Assembly: GCA_964016885.1 (NCBI GenBank)
Contig: OZ024741.1
Location: forward strand, 231,508,001 to 231,572,000
Source of the DNA: Eledone cirrhosa
Lineage: Eukaryota
Length of the DNA stretch: 64,000 bases
Reading direction: 5' to 3'
Part shown: piece by piece, positions 7,477 through 41,356 of the stretch
Position numbering within the stretch: position 1 is the first letter of the stretch
Layout of the letters: the number at the start of each line of letters is the position of its first letter
Position numbers and translations under genes: made by a program
Notes under the pieces: model-generated
What the model saw: only the letters and a program-made list of their open reading frames with translations
Databases searched by the model: none
Told to the model about the DNA's origin: nothing

Positions 7477-8149
7477 AATTTTCTTTTGGTGGGGAAGCGA
7501 TTTTTTTCAAAGATTTTAAAAAATAAATCTGAATATTCGGGCTTAAAGCCCGAATATTGAGAGGTATCCCTCTCTTTAAATCAAGATGTGTACCTTAAGT
7601 TTCGTTAATGACAAGAAAATACAAAAAAAGACACTTTACAATAGCTTAAAGCTACGAACCTTTTCCCCCGCAGACTTGTCTGTCTTCACACATGTGAATA
7701 ATAATAAAAGTGATGTTGATGGTGATGATTACTAGAAAATGCGATTTTCATCATTTCTAAAAATAGCAAAACAATTGATTCTTTGGATAGGATCAATTAG
7801 TAGTCGTTAGACATGCTCAACCAACCGTGACGCCTAAACCAATCAGCTTTAGTAATCTAGTGAAACTACGCACAGATTGGTCGAAATACAGATTGCAAGA
7901 TTTAATATTCTGAAGTCACTTTTCGATGTATATATGGCACAAATTTACCCATCTTAATGACCGGTGAAAATTGCAAAATTGACTGTCACCACATATTAGG
8001 AACCTTAAGATTGCGAAAGCATGGAAGTACTTGTTCAATGAACACTTAACATTTAATATTCTACCATACTATTTCATTCTAATACCATTAAAAATGTTAA
8101 AGGATTGTAAATAAAACGAATAAATCAGACAAAGGTGGAATTCCTTTTA

Positions 8150-8172
8150 TTAATATATATATATGTATATAC

Positions 8173-8214
<42 letters not shown>

Positions 8215-8216
8215 GC

Positions 8217-8270
<54 letters not shown>

Positions 8271-8282
8271 ATACATATATAC

Positions 8283-8331
<49 letters not shown>

Positions 8332-8359
8332 CATATCTATATCTATATATATTTATACA

Positions 8360-8393
<34 letters not shown>

Positions 8394-8732
8394 CATATAT
8401 ATATATACATATATATATATAGATAGATATATATATACATATATATATATATACATATATCTATATACATATATATATATATATAGAGTATATATATATT
8501 TATATTATATATATATACAGTATATATATATCCATATATATACATATATATAAATATATATATATATATCCATATATATATACATATATATAAATACATA
8601 TATACATATATATAAATACATATATATATATACATATATATATATATAAATACATATATATATATATATACATATATGTATATATATATATATAAATACA
8701 TATATATATATACATATATGTATATATATATA
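8150..8732. repeat. (TA)n/(TACA) microsatellite
   Basis: Direct inspection. Confidence 0.97.
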
Positions 8733-9857
8733 CAATTAAGTTAAAAATGTACATCTACATATGCATACTGAAATACTAGTATGCATATGAATACACACAC
8801 GTATACATATGTAGATGTAACATATATGGATGTACATTTTTAACTTAATTGTTTAAGCGTCAGTCATACAAAAGTGAGTTACAAACGAAACGAAATTTAA
8901 TTTCGTTTCGTTATTTGTTTTTATCGTCTCCGTTGAACCGGTACGTACTCACACTCTATGCAAATTAGTCTGCCCACTACTAATTTTCATAGAAAAAGCA
9001 TATAACGATATGTGCTTTTACGATTCTCCAGAAAGGCCGGTAGATAGGTAAATATTGCTGATGAGTTGTAACAACAACGAAACTAGTTCAATATTCCTTG
9101 TCTGGCTTTCTGGAGAATAGAGGAAAGGTGTTTCCTCGAAAACCAGTATGACTCTAAAAACCGGTTTGTCTGTGTGTTTACATACAGAATAGCTGGGTTA
9201 CTCACAGTAAAGTAACCAGTGAAAGACTTGTTACATCTACATATGTATACGTGTGTGTATTCATATGCATACTAGTATTTCAGTATACATATATGGATGT
9301 ACATTTTTAACTTAATTGTTTAAGCGTCAGTCATACAAAAGTGAGTTACAAACGAAACGAAATTTAATTTCGTTTCGTTATTTGTTTTTATCGTCTCCGC
9401 TGAACCGGTGCGTACTCACACTCTATGCAAATTAGTCTGCCCACTACTAATTTTCATAGAAAAAGCATATAACGATATGTGCTTTTACGATTCTCCAGAA
9501 AGGCCGGTAGATAGGTAAATATTGCTGATGAGTTGTAACAACAACGAAACTAGTTCAATATTCCTTGTCTGGCTTTCTGAAGAATAGGGGAAAGGTGTTT
9601 CCTCGAAAACCAGTATGACTCTAAAAACCGGTTTGTCTGTGTGTTTACATACAGAATAGCTGGGTCACCCACAGTAAAGTAACCAGTGAAAGACTTTTTA
9701 CATCTAAATATGTATACGTGTGTGTATTCATATGCATACTAGTATTTCAGTATGCATATGTAGATGTACATTTTTAACTTAATTGTTTAAGCGTCAGTCA
9801 TACAAAAGTGAGTTACAAACGAAACGAAATTTAATTTCGTTTCGTTATTTGTTTTTA

Positions 9858-9858
<1 letters not shown>
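8733..9858 (+). mobile_element. Retrozyme-like array A: 467-bp non-coding unit x ~2.2 with an inverted 5' piece (8733-8820)
   Basis: GTTTAAGCGTCAGTC recurs at 8851, 9318 and 9785. One HHR per unit. Both ends are in (TA)n. Confidence 0.85.
9051..9095 (+). ncRNA. Type I hammerhead ribozyme (array A; second copy 9518-9562)
   Basis: aatattg-CTGATGA-gttg(taacaa)caac-GAAAC-ta-GTT-caatatt. Stem I extends via ttctccagaaag/ctttctggagaa. Confidence 0.9.
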
Positions 9859-10830
<972 letters not shown>

Positions 10831-15645: not shown

Positions 15646-18135
<2,490 letters not shown>

Positions 18136-30122: not shown

Positions 30123-32705
30123 TCAGGTTATAAATTGGGTGTTGAGCTCAAGTCTATTATTGATTGGTGGATGTGTTCTATCTATAATGAGTGCTTCCTT
30201 GATTCTAAGATTGCCGAGGTTTCTTTCCTTAGTTTCTATCCTAACTGTTATGTTTTTATCAGTGTTTTTGCATTTAACTAGGTGTTTCTTAAATGAGGAA
30301 GCGTTAGTATTGAGGTGTTCTTTTATTCTTATGTAGAGTGGTCTGGTGGTGCTACCTACGTAGAAGTTGTTGCATTTGTCACACTCTAGTCTGTAAACTA
30401 CGTAAGCCTGGTGGCATAGGTCTGTGTCGTTGATGGGGCAGTTGGCTAGTCTGCAGCAGTTGTCATGTCTGGTGGAGTGTCTCTTAGCTAGCGGTCCGCG
30501 CAAAGAAGGACCCGAATGGGCCAGTTGAATATCCAGACCTTCTAGTCTGATGGCTCTGCGGATGGCTGTTGTTGTTTCTTCACTGAAGTGTGGGAGCTTC
30601 AGGAAGCAAGTGTTAGTGCCTCGGGTGTGGTGTCCTCTGTTCTTTCTGGCACGGTTTGTGGTGGATGTCGTGTATCCGTTCAGTTTGAGTACTTCCAGGA
30701 AATGTGTGGTGTGTGTGTCTCGGTCTCTGGCGTCGGTGCATTTGTTCTTGATACGTGCCAGTTCGTTCTTTATGTATCCGAACTTGGTACCGAGTGGGAG
30801 GGCCGATCTGAAATGTACGAACAGGTCCCTGTTGGCGGATTTTTTATAGAACCAGGTGTGGATGTTGCCTTCCTCTGTTACCCTGAGTTGGAAGTCCAGC
30901 AGGGATAGGGATCCGCGGTCATCGGGGTGTTCTATGCTGAACTTTATACTGGCGTCCATGCTGGAGAATGTTGTGTATATTTTCTCTGCCTTCTCACGGG
31001 ATGATGTAAGGATGAGTATGTCATCTACATATCGGGTGAAGAAGGCATGGGAATGGCAGGTGTTGAGGGCTCGGCATTCTAGCTGGTTCATGTAAGTGAT
31101 GGCCAGCAGGCCAGAGAGGCTGGATCCCATGGGTAATCCTGTTGTCTGTCTGTATGTGTGGTGGTGGAAGGTGAAGTACGTGTTGTCTACTGTGAAGGAC
31201 AAAAGTTGGTGTATGTCCGTCGGGTGGAGGCCGTAGCAGTGGATGTTCTCTGCGACCACGCAGTCCGTCAATAAATCGACAGCTGGGTGAGCGGGGACTG
31301 TAGTGTAGAGGGAGACAACGTCGAGGCTAAAAGCGTATTTATTAAGTTTAAGTTGTTCTGGCTGGAGTTGGTGTAATCTACGTATAACTTCGTCGGAGCT
31401 ACTGACATGTCCGGGGAAGGTGGAGAGTAGAGGCTTGAGGACCTGGGAGAGAAGCCAGGAAATTTTGTATAGTGGTCCTTCTATGCTAGAGACGATGGGT
31501 CTTATATGCGTCTTAGTGCTATTCTTGTGGGTCTTGATGAGGTGGTAGAAAGTGGGAAGTCTGCTATTTCTAGTGGTGTAGTTGAGTTTAATTTTATTCG
31601 GGAGTTGTCTTCTCCTACAGATATCGAACCAAATGGAGTTGGTCTGTTTTTCGATTTGGGCTGCGGTCATGTCCGGGATCACTGTGTACAGTTCACTGTC
31701 GCTTAGGTGTTCGAAGGCTAGGTTATTGTATGTGGCTTGAGAGATGACGCAGAACTCTTTACCTTTGTCGAATGGTAAGTAAATAAGTTCCTTATTCCGT
31801 AGGTTCTTCAGGGCGAGTTGTTGTGTCCTGGAGAGGTTAGGGGCCATCTTCTTCTGTTTCTGTAAGATGTTAAATACGGAATGTTTTAGTCTCGAGAGTT
31901 TTTCTTCCAGCTCGCGGTTGGCGGGCGGTGGATAGAGTGGGCGATCTAGTTGGTATATCGGGAATCTGGGTGTGGTGGATTCCGTGGTGTTGTTGTCGAG
32001 AGTCGATATCCATTTCAGTTGGTAGGCAGTCCGACAGAAATTCGTTTCTATGTCGAGCCATAGTCTGTCGTCCAGTCTCTGTTTCAATATGAACTTGGGA
32101 CCCAGGCTGAGGAGGTCTAATTCCTCTCGGGAGAGGGATCCTGTCAAGTCTGTGACGAGGTGTTTTGCGTCAGGTGTGTTGTTGGTCGGGGTGCCGCTAG
32201 GTTCGGTGTTGGTAACGTATTGTTCGCCTCTATTGGTGTTTAGCGTTGGGATGTTGTTAAGACAGTTGGCCGTCCTGAGCTTGAGAAATTTTTGTGTTAG
32301 GCGTATTTTCTCGTAGTCTCGGCGGTGGTGGTATGACCTGTCTATAGTGGCGGAGATAACCTTGGACAGAGGTTCTGGGGTTTCAGCGAGTTGTGGTACA
32401 AGGCTGGAGATAGTCCGTATGTGATGTTGTAGCGTGCGGTGTAGGTGTTGCATGAGTTTTCTTAGGCAGAATTTTTGTATGTAACTGAGTGATCGTTTGA
32501 GGCCTGGTGAATTGAAGCATGTTGGTAGGTGTAAATTTTTGATGGTTTTGGGAATGATGTTGTTATTCAGGCATCGTTTTAGGAAATTTATTTGGCAGCC
32601 GGCTTTGGCGCGCTTTTCAGATAGCTGGAAGAGTTTCTTTACAGTTGTGAACTGGGCCTGGCTCAGGCGTAATGAAAGGAGGAGGTTATAGTTCACTTGA
32701 AGCAT
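30123..32705 (-). CDS. PLE polyprotein: reverse transcriptase + GIY-YIG endonuclease (uninterrupted; probable ATG 32705)
   Basis: LLSLGPKF, FDKG, FYHLIKTHK..IRPIVS, SLDVVSLYTTVP, GLPMGSSLS, YVDD, VVYRLECDKC..YVGSTTRPLYIRIKEH, KEALII...IN. Confidence 0.93.
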   Translation of the reverse strand: MLQVNYNLLLSLRLSQAQFTTVKKLFQLSEKRAKAGCQINFLKRCLNNNIIPKTIKNLHLPTCFNSPGLKRSLSYIQKFCLRKLMQHLHRTLQHHIRTISSLVPQLAETPEPLSKVISATIDRSYHHRRDYEKIRLTQKFLKLRTANCLNNIPTLNTNRGEQYVTNTEPSGTPTNNTPDAKHLVTDLTGSLSREELDLLSLGPKFILKQRLDDRLWLDIETNFCRTAYQLKWISTLDNNTTESTTPRFPIYQLDRPLYPPPANRELEEKLSRLKHSVFNILQKQKKMAPNLSRTQQLALKNLRNKELIYLPFDKGKEFCVISQATYNNLAFEHLSDSELYTVIPDMTAAQIEKQTNSIWFDICRRRQLPNKIKLNYTTRNSRLPTFYHLIKTHKNSTKTHIRPIVSSIEGPLYKISWLLSQVLKPLLSTFPGHVSSSDEVIRRLHQLQPEQLKLNKYAFSLDVVSLYTTVPAHPAVDLLTDCVVAENIHCYGLHPTDIHQLLSFTVDNTYFTFHHHTYRQTTGLPMGSSLSGLLAITYMNQLECRALNTCHSHAFFTRYVDDILILTSSREKAEKIYTTFSSMDASIKFSIEHPDDRGSLSLLDFQLRVTEEGNIHTWFYKKSANRDLFVHFRSALPLGTKFGYIKNELARIKNKCTDARDRDTHTTHFLEVLKLNGYTTSTTNRARKNRGHHTRGTNTCFLKLPHFSEETTTAIRRAIRLEGLDIQLAHSGPSLRGPLAKRHSTRHDNCCRLANCPINDTDLCHQAYVVYRLECDKCNNFYVGSTTRPLYIRIKEHLNTNASSFKKHLVKCKNTDKNITVRIETKERNLGNLRIKEALIIDRTHPPINNRLELNTQFIT

Positions 32706-33049
32706 TGTGTAATGAGGTATAAACGTTAGAATATGTGTAATAAGGCCAAGACAATGCAGATATGGACATAGAAAAAAGAATGCAATAGTGAGAGATATTG
32801 ATGTGAATTCGTCTTTCACCTTGAATTTATTTCAATGTCCTTAATTTTCGAGATATTATCTCGAAAATTAAGGACATTTAAATAAATTCAAGGTGAAAGA
32901 CGAATTCACATCAATATCTCTCACTATTGCATTCTTTTTTCTATGTCCATATCTGCATTGTCTTGGCCTTATTACACATATTCTAACGTTTATACCTCAT
33001 TACACAATGCTTCAAGTGAACTATAACCTACTCCTTATATATATATATG

Positions 33050-34301: not shown

Positions 34302-35367
34302 TGTGTATGTGTGCGTGCGTGTGTGCGTGTGTGTGTGGGGTGTGTGTGTAAATATGGGGCTAGGAGCTCTATCAAGTTATAAATTGGGTGTTGAGTTCTA
34401 GTCTATTATTAATTGGTGGTTGTGTTTTGTCTATAATTAGTGCTTCCTTAATTCTAAGATTGCCGAGGTTTCTTTCCTTAGTTTCTATCCTAACTGTTAT
34501 GGTTTTATCGGTGTTTTTACATTTAACTAGGTGTTTCTTAACTGAGGAAGCGTTAGTATTGAGGTGTTCTTTTATTCTTATGTGGAGTGGTCTGGTGGTG
34601 CTACCTACGTAGAAATTGTTGCATTTGTCACACTCTAGTCTGTATACGACGTAAGCCAGGTGGCATAGGTCTGTGTCGTTGATGGGGCAGTTGGCTAGTC
34701 TGCAACAGTTGTCATATCTGGTAGAGTATCTTTTGGTTAGCTGACCGCGTAGAGAAGGACCTGAGTGGGCCAGTTGAATATCTAGTCCCTCTCGTCTGAT
34801 AGGTCTGCGGATGGCTGTTGTTGTTTCTTCACTGAAGTGTGGGTGCTTCAGGAAGCAAGTGTTAGTGCCTCGGGTGTGGTGTCCTCTGTTCTTTCTGGCA
34901 CGGTTTGTGGTGGATGTCGTGTATCCGTTCAGTTTGAGTACTTCCAGGAAATGTGTGGTGTGTGTGTCTCGGTCTCTAGCGTCGGTGCTTTTGTTCCGGA
35001 TACGTGCCAGTTCGTTCCCTCTGTATCCGAACTTGGCACCGAGTGGGAGGGCCGATCTGAAATGTACGAACAGGTCCCTGCTGGCGGCTTTTTTATAGAA
35101 GCAGGTGTGGATGTTGCCTTCCTCTGTTACCCTGAGTTGGAGTCCAGTAGGGATAGGGATCCGCGGTCATCGAGGTGTTCCATGCTGACATTTATACTGG
35201 CGTCCATGCTGGAGAATGTTGTGTATATTTTATATAAAATATACACAACATTCTCCAGCATGGACGCCAGTATAAAGTTCAGCATGGAACACCCCGATGA
35301 CCGCGGATCCCTATCGCTACTGGACTCCAACTCAGGGTAACAGAGGAAGGCAACATCCACACCCGCT
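33772..35367 (-). mobile_element. 5'-truncated relative of the 29.6-33.0 kb Penelope with a terminal fold-back inversion
   Basis: High similarity to 29572-30985. 35234-35367 is the reverse complement of 35100-35233 (centre gtgtatattttat|ataaaatatacac). Confidence 0.9.
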
Positions 35368-35487: not shown

Positions 35488-35676
35488 TATATATATATAT
35501 ATAAATAAATAAATAAATAAACAAACAAATATAAATAGAAAAATAGAAAAATGAACACAAACACACACAGACACCCGGATGTGGCGCATGCGCAAACTGA
35601 GCACGCAACCCACACACAAACAAAATGGCGTAGGATAGAAGAAAGGAAAGGCACAGAAACGAAGAAAGAAATCCCC

Positions 35677-35721
35677 AGTCACTGAAGAGGTCACAGAGTG
35701 TGTGACGAAAGAACTATGACT
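35677..35721 (+). ncRNA. Minimal type I HHR in pLTR (identical copy 39959-40003; diverged copy 62752-62795, minus strand)
   Basis: agtca-CTGAAGA-g-gtcaca(gagtg)tgtgac-GAAAG-aa-CTA-tgact. Confidence 0.8.
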
Positions 35722-35854
35722 ATATATATATAAACAACTATCTGGTTGTGGAACCAACCAACCAACCAGAAATTTATAAATTTGTAAATTTATAAATATA
35801 TATTAAATTAAATTGAAGTGAAAGCAACTGGTGCGTGTGTTTCTTATTGGCAAC

Positions 35855-38800
35855 ATGACCCTCCCAAAGTATAACAATATCGGTTTCAACACACGATTTC
35901 AGATAAAGAATCTTGCTAAACAAATTCAGAAACGAAATATCGTAAGCCTTAGCCAGGCTAACAAGATACTGAAAACCACCATGTTCTGTTGTCTACGAAA
36001 AACCATAACATCTCGACAACTACACTTCATAAAACTGTGCACCACTTCTAGAATCTACACCAACACCATCAATACCGACGTTAGAAGATTACAACTCACC
36101 AAAAAACAAGCAGATAGGCTAAAACGAACTTTAATTCTAAACATAAAAAAGAAGATCTATAGAGAATTAAGTCATCAAGAAAAACTAAAGCGTAACCTAA
36201 TAGATGAAATATCTAAAATCACCACACCAGCAGAAAAACTAACATTTATAAGCCTTATACGCCCCGAAGAACAGTACATTACTCAAGAATGTAATAAGCA
36301 CTTTAACAGAAAATTAAAGTGGCTTAAACAGGCAAAGCTAAATCGGGATACTATAGAGTATACCAATAGATATCCCGACAAAATTGACGGTATCAACATG
36401 GCCGACACCTCATTATCTGAAGAGTTCAACAATGAAAATACCAACATTTATGGAAACACGAAAATAGATAATAATGAAATGTCTGTGTTACGTCTGCCAC
36501 CCAAATTTGCGACATTCAAGAAGGTAAATATGATTAGTTGTCTGTCAGAAATAGAAAAATCATTTACGAAACTACGCTGGAGCATCAAAAACAAAAACAA
36601 AAGCAACAATATACGCACACACATATACAACACACATCCCAACAACAACAGACACACAGACACAAACAACAATAACAACAACAATAGCAACATACCCAGA
36701 TACAACACCAACAATAGCAACATACCCAGATACAACAGACACGCAGACACAAACAACAATAACAACACACACGGAGACAACAATAACAACAACACACACA
36801 TCAACAACAACAACAACAGCAACATACCCAGATACAACAACAACAGACACGCAAACACAAACAACAATAACAACACACACAACAACGATAACACACACAC
36901 ACACGGAGACAACAACACACATCAACAACAACACACATCAACAACAACAACACACACACATTCAATGCCTCTCACCACCACTACAATCTTAACAAACACA
37001 CAGACACAGAAAACAAGTAATGACAGTAGCACAGAAATCAGAGAAATAAGAGAAAGTAATAGGATTAAAAGGAGTAGGGAGACTAAGGACAAAGAGAATA
37101 ACCAAGACGAACACACAGACACACAAAATAGGGTAGATAACAACATTGAGCCAGTGGAAAGAGACAGGAGTAATTATGAGAGACATAGAAACAACCATGA
37201 AGCTGAGGCTGCTGCTGTTGGTGGAAATAGAAACAACACAACTAACAATAGCACTAGTACACATAAAGCTGCAGCCTGGAACTCTCCGTTTTATAACCCC
37301 TCCGATAAATCATTCGACCTACGACGAGTCCACGGCACGACTTTGCCATTTAACAAACGCACGCAGTTGCCGTCGCAGGTCGATGAACAAACAGAAGCAC
37401 AATTTAGTATAGCTAAATCCGAACTTAGAAATATTATAGAACAGTATAGCAAGAAGCATAATAGAATAGAGGCCCAGCAACTGGGAGAAGAATCTTCAAA
37501 TGGCTTGCGTAAGCTCATGCAGCGCTCGCGTAATGGAGAGATAGCATGCTTTCCAACAGACAAGTCTGGCAGAATGTCAGTTGACAGCCTGCCAAACTAC
37601 ATCCAGGCAATGCAACCCCACATCACTAACACAAGAGAGCTAACACCACAGGAGCATGAGGATAGAGAAAAAACCCTCAATGCCCATATGGTGATGTGGA
37701 CAAATATAATGCAGCCCAACAAAAGGACTGCCAACAACTTCCAGGCCTGGAACAATGACGTGCCGGCGTTGTATGGGCTTCGAAAAGACCATAAAACGGG
37801 TTGGGACCCTGTCGCGGGACCACCAAGACGGCCAGTCTGTGGGGCTAACATTGCTAGTAACTACAGACTGTCCTACTTCCTCTCCCTGATCATACGCCCC
37901 ATCATTGAGATGTCCCCAGATGTGTGTGACAGCACGGAGGACCTCCTCAGCAGAATCGGCGCGGGTAACCGATCTGGGGACCTAACAAACTGCATAATAG
38001 GCAGTATGGATGTTGTGTCCCTGTACCCATCTATTGACGTGGATTTTGCTGTGGAGAAATGCGTCGAAATGATCAGCGAGAGCAAGGTTGAGTTCCGTGG
38101 GATTGATACCAGTGAGCTGGGACTTCTACTTAAGCTTACCCATAGTAATAGTTACCTAGACACTTATGACCTTAGCAACCTGTGCCCTACAAGACCAGCA
38201 AGAGGCAGACCACCTACCATTACCTCAATGGCCAAGAAAACCCACACAGATAGATGGAACGGGTGGACCAGAGCCATACGGACACCCGAAAACCACGATG
38301 AACTGAAGAAAATGATTGCACATGCGGTAGGGGCCAGCATAAAATTAACCCTTAAGGAACATATGTTCAAATTTAATGGTAAAACATATGCCCAAGAGGA
38401 AGGAGCAGCCATTGGTGTCAGCATTGCAGGCGACATAGCTAACTTGTTCATGGTATGGTGGGACAGTAGACTTAAACAAAAACTTAAAGAACAATTAGAA
38501 GACAGCTTAACCCTGATAATGTACTCCCGCTACGTAGATGATATAAACATCGTAGTTAAGACACCCCCACTAAAGAACAGTCAGGAACCAGAGAAAAACA
38601 CAATGGAAAGCATCCAGCAAATAGCAAACTCCATCCACCAGAGCATTAAAGTTACTATAGACTACCCAAGTAGACACCCCAACCATCGATTACCTGTACT
38701 AGACACAGAGCTCTGGTTAGATACTATTAACTACCAAAAACAAATCCTCCATTCCCATTATGCCAAACCCATGACTTCCAAACATCTGATCCACCGAAAC

Positions 38801-39661
38801 TCGGCCATTTCGGACCATACCAAAATCAACATACTGATTGCGGATTTGATACGGGTGATGAGAAATGTGTCCCGCATGTGCAACCCCGAAGAACTAGAGA
38901 GACACATACAACACTTCATCCACCGTATGCAGTTCTCTGGCTACAATCAGAGAGATAGAATCAGAGTGTATAAAGGAGCCAGAACCAAATGGGAAAAAAT
39001 GGTAAATAATGACATAAATGGGACCTGCCCCTTGTATAGGAGCAAATTTTGGAATAGAATAGAAAGAACTAAGAACAAGGCCAATAGAATAAACTCATGG
39101 TATGATAGCAATAAATACCAGAGTGTAATGTTCATCAATACAACCCCTAGAGGCGAACTAGCCTACAAATTTAGAAGGGCCCTAAAGAAACATAATCTCA
39201 ATATTAAGATAGTAGAAAGACCTGGTACCTCCGTAAAAACACTTATTAGCAAGACATACCCGTTCCAAAGACCCTCATGTATAGATAAGAAATGTATAAC
39301 CTGTAAAATAAGCCCCCATATTAACTGTAAAACTAGAAATGTAGTATATAGCATAAGATGTACTGAAGGACAATGTAGAAACAAAAATATAGTGTACATA
39401 GGTGAGACAGCTCGTAGTATAGGGGAACGAATAAATGAACACTGGCGAGACCTCCAAGATAGTAAAGAATCATCTGTGCTCTACCAACATGCTAAGATAG
39501 AACACAGGGGTAAATTAGAGAGCATAGAAATAAAAATAGAATCCACACACAAGAAAGACGCAATGTTTAGGCAAATTACAGAGGCAGTAAGCATAAAAGA
39601 ATTAAAACCAAAATTAAATAGAAAATATGAGTGGAACAGCAACATCACAACTTACAATTAA
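35855..39661 (+). CDS. PLE polyprotein RT + GIY-YIG (~1270 aa, uninterrupted)
   Basis: VLRLPPKFA, TDKSG, LYGLRKDHK..RRPVCGA, SMDVVSLYPSI, GAAIG, YVDD, VVYSIRC..YIGETARSIGERINEH, RQITEA..LNRKYEW. First ATG at 35855. Confidence 0.93.
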   Translation: MTLPKYNNIGFNTRFQIKNLAKQIQKRNIVSLSQANKILKTTMFCCLRKTITSRQLHFIKLCTTSRIYTNTINTDVRRLQLTKKQADRLKRTLILNIKKKIYRELSHQEKLKRNLIDEISKITTPAEKLTFISLIRPEEQYITQECNKHFNRKLKWLKQAKLNRDTIEYTNRYPDKIDGINMADTSLSEEFNNENTNIYGNTKIDNNEMSVLRLPPKFATFKKVNMISCLSEIEKSFTKLRWSIKNKNKSNNIRTHIYNTHPNNNRHTDTNNNNNNNSNIPRYNTNNSNIPRYNRHADTNNNNNTHGDNNNNNTHINNNNNSNIPRYNNNRHANTNNNNNTHNNDNTHTHGDNNTHQQQHTSTTTTHTHSMPLTTTTILTNTQTQKTSNDSSTEIREIRESNRIKRSRETKDKENNQDEHTDTQNRVDNNIEPVERDRSNYERHRNNHEAEAAAVGGNRNNTTNNSTSTHKAAAWNSPFYNPSDKSFDLRRVHGTTLPFNKRTQLPSQVDEQTEAQFSIAKSELRNIIEQYSKKHNRIEAQQLGEESSNGLRKLMQRSRNGEIACFPTDKSGRMSVDSLPNYIQAMQPHITNTRELTPQEHEDREKTLNAHMVMWTNIMQPNKRTANNFQAWNNDVPALYGLRKDHKTGWDPVAGPPRRPVCGANIASNYRLSYFLSLIIRPIIEMSPDVCDSTEDLLSRIGAGNRSGDLTNCIIGSMDVVSLYPSIDVDFAVEKCVEMISESKVEFRGIDTSELGLLLKLTHSNSYLDTYDLSNLCPTRPARGRPPTITSMAKKTHTDRWNGWTRAIRTPENHDELKKMIAHAVGASIKLTLKEHMFKFNGKTYAQEEGAAIGVSIAGDIANLFMVWWDSRLKQKLKEQLEDSLTLIMYSRYVDDINIVVKTPPLKNSQEPEKNTMESIQQIANSIHQSIKVTIDYPSRHPNHRLPVLDTELWLDTINYQKQILHSHYAKPMTSKHLIHRNSAISDHTKINILIADLIRVMRNVSRMCNPEELERHIQHFIHRMQFSGYNQRDRIRVYKGARTKWEKMVNNDINGTCPLYRSKFWNRIERTKNKANRINSWYDSNKYQSVMFINTTPRGELAYKFRRALKKHNLNIKIVERPGTSVKTLISKTYPFQRPSCIDKKCITCKISPHINCKTRNVVYSIRCTEGQCRNKNIVYIGETARSIGERINEHWRDLQDSKESSVLYQHAKIEHRGKLESIEIKIESTHKKDAMFRQITEAVSIKELKPKLNRKYEWNSNITTYN

Positions 39662-41356
39662 GGACAAAATGAAAACACACACACACATAGAACAAACAAC
39701 TTACAATTGAAAACACACACAAAATGAAAACACACACAAGACAAAATGAAAACACACACACACATAGAACAAACAACCAACCAACAATAAATAAATAAAT
39801 AAACAAACAAATATAAATAGAAAAATAGAAAAATGAACACAAACACACACAGACACCCGGATGTGGCGCATGCGCAAACTGAGCACGCAACCCACACACA
39901 AACAAAATGGCGTAGGATAGAAGAAAGGAAAGGCACAGAAACGAAGAAAGAAATCCCCAGTCACTGAAGAGGTCACAGAGTGTGTGACGAAAGAACTATG
40001 ACTATATATATATAAACAACTATCTGGTTGTGGAACCAACCAACCAACCAGATAAATTTGACATATCTTAGAGTTTACAACTTCCATTTAAAAAGTTGTT
40101 ACGGTAGTGAAAATGTTAAGGACGGTTAGAAAGAAAGACGGAGAAAAAAAAGGAAAAAAGGAAAAAGAAAAAGAAGGAGAAAAGAAAAAGAAAGAGCGGA
40201 AGGTGAAGAAGATGAAGAAATGTATGTAAAGGGAAAACCACCATCTATGAGGGAAGGGTGTACTGTAATTATTCATTTGTTTATTTATTTATTTAGTGTT
40301 AAGGATATGGGGAGAAATAAAAACAAAAATAAATAAGGAGAGGTAGATCGAGTAATATCTATTATACGAGGTGGGAGAGATAGGGGAGGGGTGATATACA
40401 GGTGATGGAGTTAAAACAGCCGATATAAGAGTAGAGGTAGGAGGAGAGGAGATATACTTAGAAACAAAAATGATAGTTTTAAAATATTATGTTTCATCAG
40501 TCTATCAATTCCTATGAATTATAATGTAAACATCAATATTCATGAATGAGACACATATCAATAATGTGTGAAAAAATAGTGACTCTATGTTTATCTTAAA
40601 AATTCATAGGTTTATAATCAAAATCTGAGACAAAATCTCAAAAAATACTGGAATACATAGGTATATATGTATTTTCATGAAAAAAGAGAAAAGAGAAAGA
40701 AAAAGCGAACGTTATCTCAAACTGACATTATAGACACACATGTGAGCTTACATGATCAGCTCTGTAAATTTTTATTTCACATGGAAATCCTCATTGCGTT
40801 AAAAAGATTTTACCATACACATAAGTGTACATACATATATATATACGTAAAATATACATTATTAATAATAATAATATTCTTGCCCTTTCTTACATGATTA
40901 TCGTACAAGCATAGAATAGAACAGATATCAATACATTAAAATATTAAAAACGCCAAGAATATTTTTCTCCCCAGAATATCTAGGGCCGTAATAAAAACAC
41001 AGTGTGCCCAGCATATCAATCAATCCCTCCAATTTATTTGACAATATTGCCAAGTTTATTAGAAGCAATCAGAGTCAAAAGCAAACAAAACCAAAATTAT
41101 TCACCAAACCTACTTAGCAGAAATCATTCAAAAAAAACTTTAGGATACTCGGTTGTTCTACAGATGCTCTTATATTTATTCTAGAAGTTTATCTAGCTTA
41201 AAAATTTTATTCAATGTATTTGGATCATCACCGTTTTAAGGTAGTTTAAGTACATTATTAATTATATATTAATGAAGAAGGTTTAAAGAATTGAAGGAAT
41301 CGAAAGATTTATCGCCAAGTTTTCTAAAATAATTAAAAGTCTTAAGTAAATATATT

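Follow-up and report, generated by a model that had tools for sequence, protein, structure and literature searches.

A 467-bp hammerhead-bearing tandem unit in Eledone cirrhosa as a candidate Penelope-mobilised retrozyme

For metazoan retrozymes, the available text of two reports proposes Penelope helpers and circular templates, neither of which is demonstrated there (PMC7229834, 10.64898/2026.07.22.740005). The Penelope tail is described as a short extension found at one end only (PMC8557442, PMC3846280). In the parts of the anole study available to us, the tail of an anole Penelope element is bounded in vitro by two internal reverse-transcription start sites, both target strands are cut and extended, and ribozyme mutants leave insertion unimpaired (PMC11167929). 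In newt satellite 2 and schistosome Sm-alpha, a small-RNA-gene promoter lies inside the hammerhead unit; the accessible text assigns it to the snRNA-type Pol II class in the newt and to Pol III in the schistosome, and states that each unit can drive the next (PMC2220036, PMC6765202).

Here, we describe an array at 8733–9858 of a 64,000-nucleotide stretch of Eledone cirrhosa DNA (the window). At the sequence level, the array fits the definition of a non-LTR retrozyme given in the available text of the two retrozyme reports (PMC7229834, 10.64898/2026.07.22.740005), and it belongs to a real, young retrozyme family that is very probably Penelope-mobilised. Our reading, to which we assign a probability of about 0.6, is that the array is a dispersed retrozyme insertion made by the enzyme of a Penelope-like element (PLE) acting in trans on a TA target, probably from a circular unit-length RNA. 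Two fixed insertion ends, a U6-type element and a bias towards A>G variants go beyond what the original prediction had noted.

The array and its hammerheads

A tandem repeat with a period of 467 bp, 2.2 copies and 98% matches is reported by TRF at 8820–9858. With units numbered so that u1 is window base 8823, the locus is organized as follows.

8153..8732: left (TA)n target tract (TRF period 2, 289.5 copies)
8733..8822, minus strand: inverted short arm, u407–467 plus u1 to about u30 (self-BLAST, L001 map)
8823..9289, plus strand: unit 1 of the long arm (TRF)
9290..9756, plus strand: unit 2 of the long arm
9757..9858, plus strand: partial unit 3, which stops at T2 (u102), the fixed end on the downstream side
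9856..10830: right (TA)n target tract (TRF)

The outward end of the short arm is the upstream fixed end, T1, and partial unit 3 holds a tail of about 70 nt, from T1 to T2, with a hairpin at 9818–9846. Units 1 and 2 are unlike at 8 of 467 bases, and the inverted piece matches 9229–9318 and 9698–9785 with 96–99% identity. In a trimer of the unit, the longest stop-free frame spans 62 codons and the longest ATG frame 22. The original prediction of a non-coding unit repeated about 2.2 times is thus upheld by the TRF period and copy number and by the lack of any frame above 62 codons. Its other structural elements stand as well: one type I hammerhead per unit (CTGATGA at 9058 and 9525), an inverted 5′ piece, which self-BLAST identifies as the reversed segment listed above, and insertion in (TA)n, with TA tracts on both sides. 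The array ends sit within these TA repeats, where a target-site duplication is unreadable. The left tract is abutted by the 3′ end of a Neptune-like element at 7700–8150, as in L185 and L188, the hammerhead core of which seems decayed. Elsewhere in the window, a T1-end stub of family A, with 85% identity, lies within a TA tract at 16713–16770, a perfect 850-bp inverted repeat occupies 54245–55094 and 55347–56196, and hammerhead-core-like motifs form an inverted pair at 59765–59850.

The ribozyme motifs define a predicted unit-length RNA.

9046..9098, plus strand: type I hammerhead 1 (core 9058–9088, predicted cut after 9088, GUU)
9513..9565, plus strand: type I hammerhead 2 (core 9525–9555, predicted cut after 9555)
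9089..9555, plus strand: predicted 467-nt monomer RNA, cut site to cut site

In hammerhead 1, stem I pairs 9051–9057 with 9089–9095 and has a further extension, the CTGATGA core occupies 9058–9064, stem II consists of 4 bp (9065–9068 with 9075–9078), and stem III is the palindrome ACTAGT at 9082–9087 (ACUAGU in RNA). The predicted cut site is the GUU ending at 9088, which is u266; GUU is a weak cleavage triplet. No Rfam match reaches the gathering score anywhere in the window; Hammerhead_HH9 scores 38.6 bits (E = 5.4e-08), under the cut-off of 52, at 9040–9111 and 9507–9578. Rfam matches to miRNAs and sRNAs in the window were dismissed as AT-rich hairpin noise. The predicted monomer has a computed fold of −155.9 kcal/mol (z = −9.83 versus shuffles) and a circular fold of −151.6, and its predicted minimum-energy fold mispairs the ribozyme core. 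Across 13 family variants, stems I and II carry two-sided changes, affecting 7 pairs in all; covariation is found in 21 cells versus 8.1 in shuffles, a count that reduces to a small number of independent events between related families. In the searched 3.0-Gb assembly, the exact 33-nt ribozyme core has 5,114 copies (reversed control, 0), and a wider ribozyme motif, which includes a sister family, has 20,055 (controls, 0). The genome-wide core count, the monomer fold and the two-sided stem changes argue that the motif is not due to chance.

The palindromic stem III would form one or two pairs in a monomer (one plus a tetraloop) and six in a dimer. Nearest-neighbour energies are −0.4 for the single and −17.6 for the double hammerhead, both lying above the unconstrained minimum and calculated with the outer stem omitted; as modelled, they favour the dimeric over the single form weakly at best. 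According to the accessible text on axolotl HHR_Amex1, that ribozyme, which has a palindromic stem III, cleaves poorly by itself and efficiently in dimeric form (PMC7229834), and the available part of the frog report gives one of nine dimers as cut in vitro (10.64898/2026.07.22.740005).

Insertion ends, dispersal and the origin of the enzyme

A DNA search with the unit returned at least 168 matches, from 36 of 831 candidates, the full-length ones with 97–100% identity. The original prediction had proposed a genome-wide search for copy number and flanks, and that search gives the 5,114 exact cores together with TA at the ends in the mapped loci. The 79 mapped loci are a non-random set composed of the best DNA-search matches, the first motif places on contig 1 and exact matches. 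The genome counts and mapped loci indicate that the unit is dispersed and high-copy, with marks of retrotransposition. A sister family, B, is present in the window itself.

46590–48460, minus strand: sister family B (3.5 identical copies of a 466-bp unit, together with an inverted arm)

Family B, for which the stretch 46590–48227 is also given, has a GUA site, the same ACUAGU stem III and U6-type element as family A, and ends that are about 59 nt apart.

Two arms, arranged head to head, are present at 53 of the 79 mapped loci. At 48 of these 53, one outward end is T1 (u23–33) and the other is T2 (u99–103); the remaining five combine T2 with an irregular end, and none has T1/T1 or T2/T2. The right end of one locus, L002, was set to u102 by hand, a detached fragment following it. 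The array at 8733–9858 conforms: its short arm terminates at T1 and its long arm at T2. Contact with three or more TA units is seen at 123 of 126 such ends, compared with 358 of 1,857 random flank positions. For the autonomous element in the window (frame 35855–39661), 6 and 9 of 19 ends likewise fall at two positions that abut TA and lie 60 nt apart. The T1/T2 pattern is the Penelope tail signature, and we are confident that a Penelope-type protein copies the unit into (TA)n. Fold-back of one cDNA as the origin of the second arm was rejected: in two of three informative loci, the supposed copy would exceed its template in length. On dispersal, copy number, lack of coding capacity, one hammerhead per unit and Penelope-type ends, the earlier retrozyme reading survives the tests that were run.

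Two other origins of the repeat have to be weighed. An ordinary DNA satellite, spread by recombination and bearing a ribozyme look-alike, might be suggested by the largest array (G000:C5:87617749-87686376, L252–L261), which comprises 147 units of the array's subfamily over 68.6 kb and has 25-unit block duplications typical of unequal crossover. However, that array too terminates at T2 plus TA, and the fixed ends, head-to-head arms and TA targeting of the family, together with its strand-asymmetric A>G variants and covarying ribozyme stems, contradict this account, to which we give next to no credence. Instead, the 147-unit array is a satellite born from one retrozyme insertion. It was rejected as the source of the array at 8733–9858: most of its units carry 394T, and the window units lack it. 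Further rearrangement is seen as an ABAB pattern in L039 and a period-3 pattern in one arm of L033, and some arrays grow after insertion through recombination or unequal crossover. The second origin, that the unit is a mere pLTR of an autonomous Penelope-like element elsewhere, was named by the original prediction as a case that would overturn it. In its favour, the ends, the tail and the TA target all have the Penelope form, homology to pLTRs is frequent among frog retrozymes in the available part of the frog report (10.64898/2026.07.22.740005), and the loci inspected are 79 of thousands. Against this origin, a PLE frame joined to the unit was found at none of the 79 loci, and the 467-nt cycle runs on unbroken, no internal breakpoint recurring. 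None of the 79 has a PLE-like coding match within 600 bp of the array without an intervening TA run, and all 11 PLE-like coding matches near these loci are separated from the arrays by TA. No pLTR homologous to the unit was present in 30 GIY-YIG loci (10,597 candidates, 150 scored) or among the matches listed for 20 longer PLE loci; among the matches listed, comparison of the unit with these 50 PLE loci gave only microsatellite-like patches and separately inserted sister copies. B-type units beside coding fragments in L145 and L146 were set aside as insertions into old frames. A pLTR origin is therefore very unlikely in our judgement, and a retrozyme served in trans is preferred.

A helper with a homologous pLTR was likewise found neither in the 50 PLE loci, a small and Neptune-biased sample, nor in the three PLEs of the window. 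One of the latter, at 35560–40100, has an open frame of 1,268 codons (35855–39661) and hammerheads at 35682 and 39964, and is a candidate helper. Its tail end has a 10-mer in common with the hairpin of the retrozyme tail. In the ESM Atlas, the long frame of the window falls with GIY-YIG/RT clusters, its clade not being fixed. A second Penelope-like family (RT plus GIY-YIG) is represented on the minus strand by one long copy and one truncated copy (30123–32831 and 34372–35166), and its inverted 5′ piece ends in TA. At five loci of a Neptune-like family (L152, L153, L155, L163, L199), a hammerhead with a U3-A8 core was seen by eye 3′ of the GIY-YIG frame, as was a motif like the retrozyme tail.

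The template and the U6-type element

The predicted cut site is crossed by 90 of 106 arms, and at least twice by 34 of them, and inner ends lie within 10 nt of it in 1 of 106 cases, compared with 4.8 expected. A cut linear monomer copied once was rejected as the template, as arms run through the cut site; the template is therefore a circle or a multimer. In an arm-haplotype test on the 44 loci whose arms have 150 or more positions in common (median distance 0.47%), the two arms of one locus fell in the lowest quartile of between-locus distance at 42 loci, a result that could equally reflect one source active at a time. Rare variants were defined as those seen in at most two loci. Among 25 that are fixed in all units of a locus, 12 are A>G and none is T>C; among 205 sporadic ones, 13 are A>G and 32 are T>C. 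The 12 fixed A>G variants represent 10 sites and 8 events, and the bias persists when collapsed to events (p = 0.003). It probably reflects a hammerhead strand that underwent A-to-I editing and then passed through a bottleneck of one unit: an A>G present in every unit of a locus implies such a bottleneck, as a circle predicts. A 115G variant occurs at four loci, in at least two subfamilies. A clade with three A>G changes (L032, L272–L278) comprises 69 near-identical units at seven loci, not at one locus as had been expected, and has no partial form at the middle site. Its complete units differ by rare indels only and its arms contain up to 17 units, so long homogeneous arms exist in the youngest insertions.

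Other loci are heterogeneous. The array at 8733–9858 is a mosaic, several of its eight differing sites being common to other loci, and is in itself no evidence for a single circular template. At L019, L208 and L262, private variants are common to both arms yet confined to some of the units, and they are in register when counted from the junction, a pattern that fits a heterogeneous multimer template or later arm-to-arm conversion. At L002, L041 and L218, the two arms derive from different subfamilies. Haplotype-switch intervals include the cut site in two of four cases, compared with 0.74 expected, a comparison that covers four intervals only. An arm of L278 changes to another subfamily within an interval that starts at the cut site. 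In the contigs of four sequencing sets, family variants are present, with no start, end or joint seen. One 496-nt contig from another coded organism (run X4, record 9; depth 4.5) has the unit length plus 30, and would agree with a circle or with a homogeneous array closed into a loop.

Each unit also contains sequences that resemble the upstream region of a small-RNA gene.

8957..8974, plus strand: 18-bp U6-like element, u135–152 (second copy, 9424–9441)
9001..9006, plus strand: TATA-like box, 44 bp past the element start (second copy, 9468–9473)

The element is kept in both families. The TATA-like box is weak in family A; its distance from the element is fixed in both families, and the adjacent segment differs by 13 nt between them. 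In the host, the same element lies at −77 to −79, with TATA at −30, upstream of U6 loci of three kinds and of RNase MRP and U6atac. It is in place at five of the seven U6 loci listed and displaced by insertion in the other two; it is absent from 14 further U6 matches and three of four U6atac matches, which have the look of processed copies, and from the upstream regions of eight U1 and three U2 loci. A matrix derived from the five element-bearing host genes gives the unit 20.2 bits, a score equalled by none of 2,000 shuffles, and U1 and U2 upstream regions score at most 5.5 bits. The element-to-TATA spacing is 43–44 in the unit compared with 47–49 in host genes, and the sense strand has four runs of 4–5 T per unit, which would stop Pol III. 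In one subfamily, found at 10 of the 79 loci, the first sense-strand run of five T is interrupted at u15–19 (8837–8841), which would ease Pol III read-through. Five element-less U6 or U6atac copies (L079, L080, L083, L086, L087) begin in or just after TA or GT tracts, and these were possibly mobilised by the same machinery as the unit. In the predicted RNA fold, the element also forms a hairpin as its 5′ strand, paired with a conserved strand downstream. Unlike the ribozyme stems, this hairpin has no two-sided change; its 5′ strand is constant and its 3′ strand varies with loss of pairs. In the triple A>G clade, which has one origin, the element is destroyed and the hairpin is kept through G-U pairs. 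In windows picked after the data were seen, shared polymorphisms number one in the tail and none in either the element (u132–199) or the ribozyme, compared with 6.8, 5.0 and 5.2 expected.

These data leave two alternatives to be weighed. One keeps the non-autonomous, Penelope-copied element but takes as its template a multimeric transcript that is left uncut or is cut only in part, cleavage and circles being incidental to mobility. It would accommodate the in-register heterogeneity of three loci and the mosaic array, homogeneous long source arrays do exist to supply such a transcript, the GUU site is weak and stem III has only about 2 bp, and the anole element's main substrate is unprocessed RNA in the available text (PMC11167929). 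However, variants of the A>G type alone that occupy all units of the two arms call for a bottleneck of one unit, and a single unit must have carried the triple change, which occurs in all 69 units and in no partial form; the ribozyme region also lacks shared polymorphism and its stems covary. Short first insertions that expanded later could also have produced the bottleneck. We consider a multimeric template unlikely, and a circle as the main template to have modestly better than even odds. The other alternative concerns expression and would go with a circle as well as with a multimer: the U6-like 12-mer would matter as an RNA hairpin strand only, transcription being read-through from outside promoters. 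Pairing with the conserved strand, the hairpin-preserving variant that reached seven loci, the spacing unlike that of host genes and the T runs all speak for it, as does a review that, in its available part, describes metazoan retrozymes as apparently without promoters (PMC7761336). The match to the upstream regions of five host type-3 genes, unequalled in the shuffles, the constancy of the 5′ strand while the 3′ strand varies, and a TATA-like box at a fixed distance argue against it. The hairpin account is a serious possibility that we rate at somewhat below even.

Proposed mechanism and comparison with known systems

In the mechanism that we propose, tandem units would be transcribed on the hammerhead strand, for which the U6-type element of the upstream unit is, by a narrow preference, the likely promoter. 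Neighbouring hammerheads would then cut after GUU, and it is likely that they would do so as a dimer through ACUAGU. A host ligase would close the 467-nt monomer, the stems of which ADAR might edit. The Penelope protein would nick each strand of (TA)n and prime a first cDNA at T1 and a second at T2; each cDNA would roll through the template, and their truncated ends would be joined in the middle. The resulting arrays would mutate later, and some would lengthen by unequal crossover. That all three features hold together, namely a retrozyme that captured a host U6-type promoter, an ADAR-edited circle and paired rolling reverse transcription that starts at two fixed sites of a single RNA molecule, is improbable in our estimate. 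If it is true, the element-less triple A>G clade would record RNA-level amplification or persistence of one circle in the germ line; such amplification or persistence is reported in the accessible text for a plant retrozyme (PMC9695139). The family offers as experimental handles two candidate start sites and a candidate promoter for which one clade is a natural knockout; its editing marks could serve to barcode the template molecules. The array at 8733–9858 adds two cautions, the heterogeneity of arrays and the existence of an element-less clade.

Our literature search, from which subscription papers mostly fell outside, returned nothing on this family in octopus or other cephalopods, on editing scars in retrozymes, on a mollusc U6 element or on strict end asymmetry. 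The closest relatives, as described in the available text, are the metazoan non-LTR retrozymes of coral, mussel and axolotl (PMC7229834), which are likewise AT-rich tandem repeats that encode no protein and carry one type I hammerhead per unit, reach thousands of copies, have a highly self-paired monomer and share their genome with Penelope-like elements; the palindromic stem III is shared with axolotl HHR_Amex1 (PMC7229834). The 467-nt unit exceeds the quoted range of 150–450, and the two-armed insertions with their strict T1/T2 asymmetry, the A>G scars and the U6-type element are particular to this family with respect to the descriptions available. In contrast to many frog retrozymes as described in the frog report (10.64898/2026.07.22.740005), no pLTR homologue was found among the matches listed for 50 PLE loci. 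With EN+ Penelope-like elements (PMC11167929, PMC8557442, PMC3846280), the accessible text indicates a common inverted 5′ arm, an AT-rich or microsatellite target, an optional one-end tail between two start sites and a hammerhead near the ends. The unit differs from them in having no ORF, multi-unit arms, a tail of about 70 nt rather than 30–40, and a hammerhead with a long stem I and a 4-bp stem II where theirs is minimal. Like newt satellite 2 and Sm-alpha as described in part, it is a hammerhead tandem repeat with a promoter-like element inside the unit; the putative element here matches host U6, U6atac and MRP, not U1 or U2. The class is known, and the U6-type element and the insertion record set this family apart as a variant of it.
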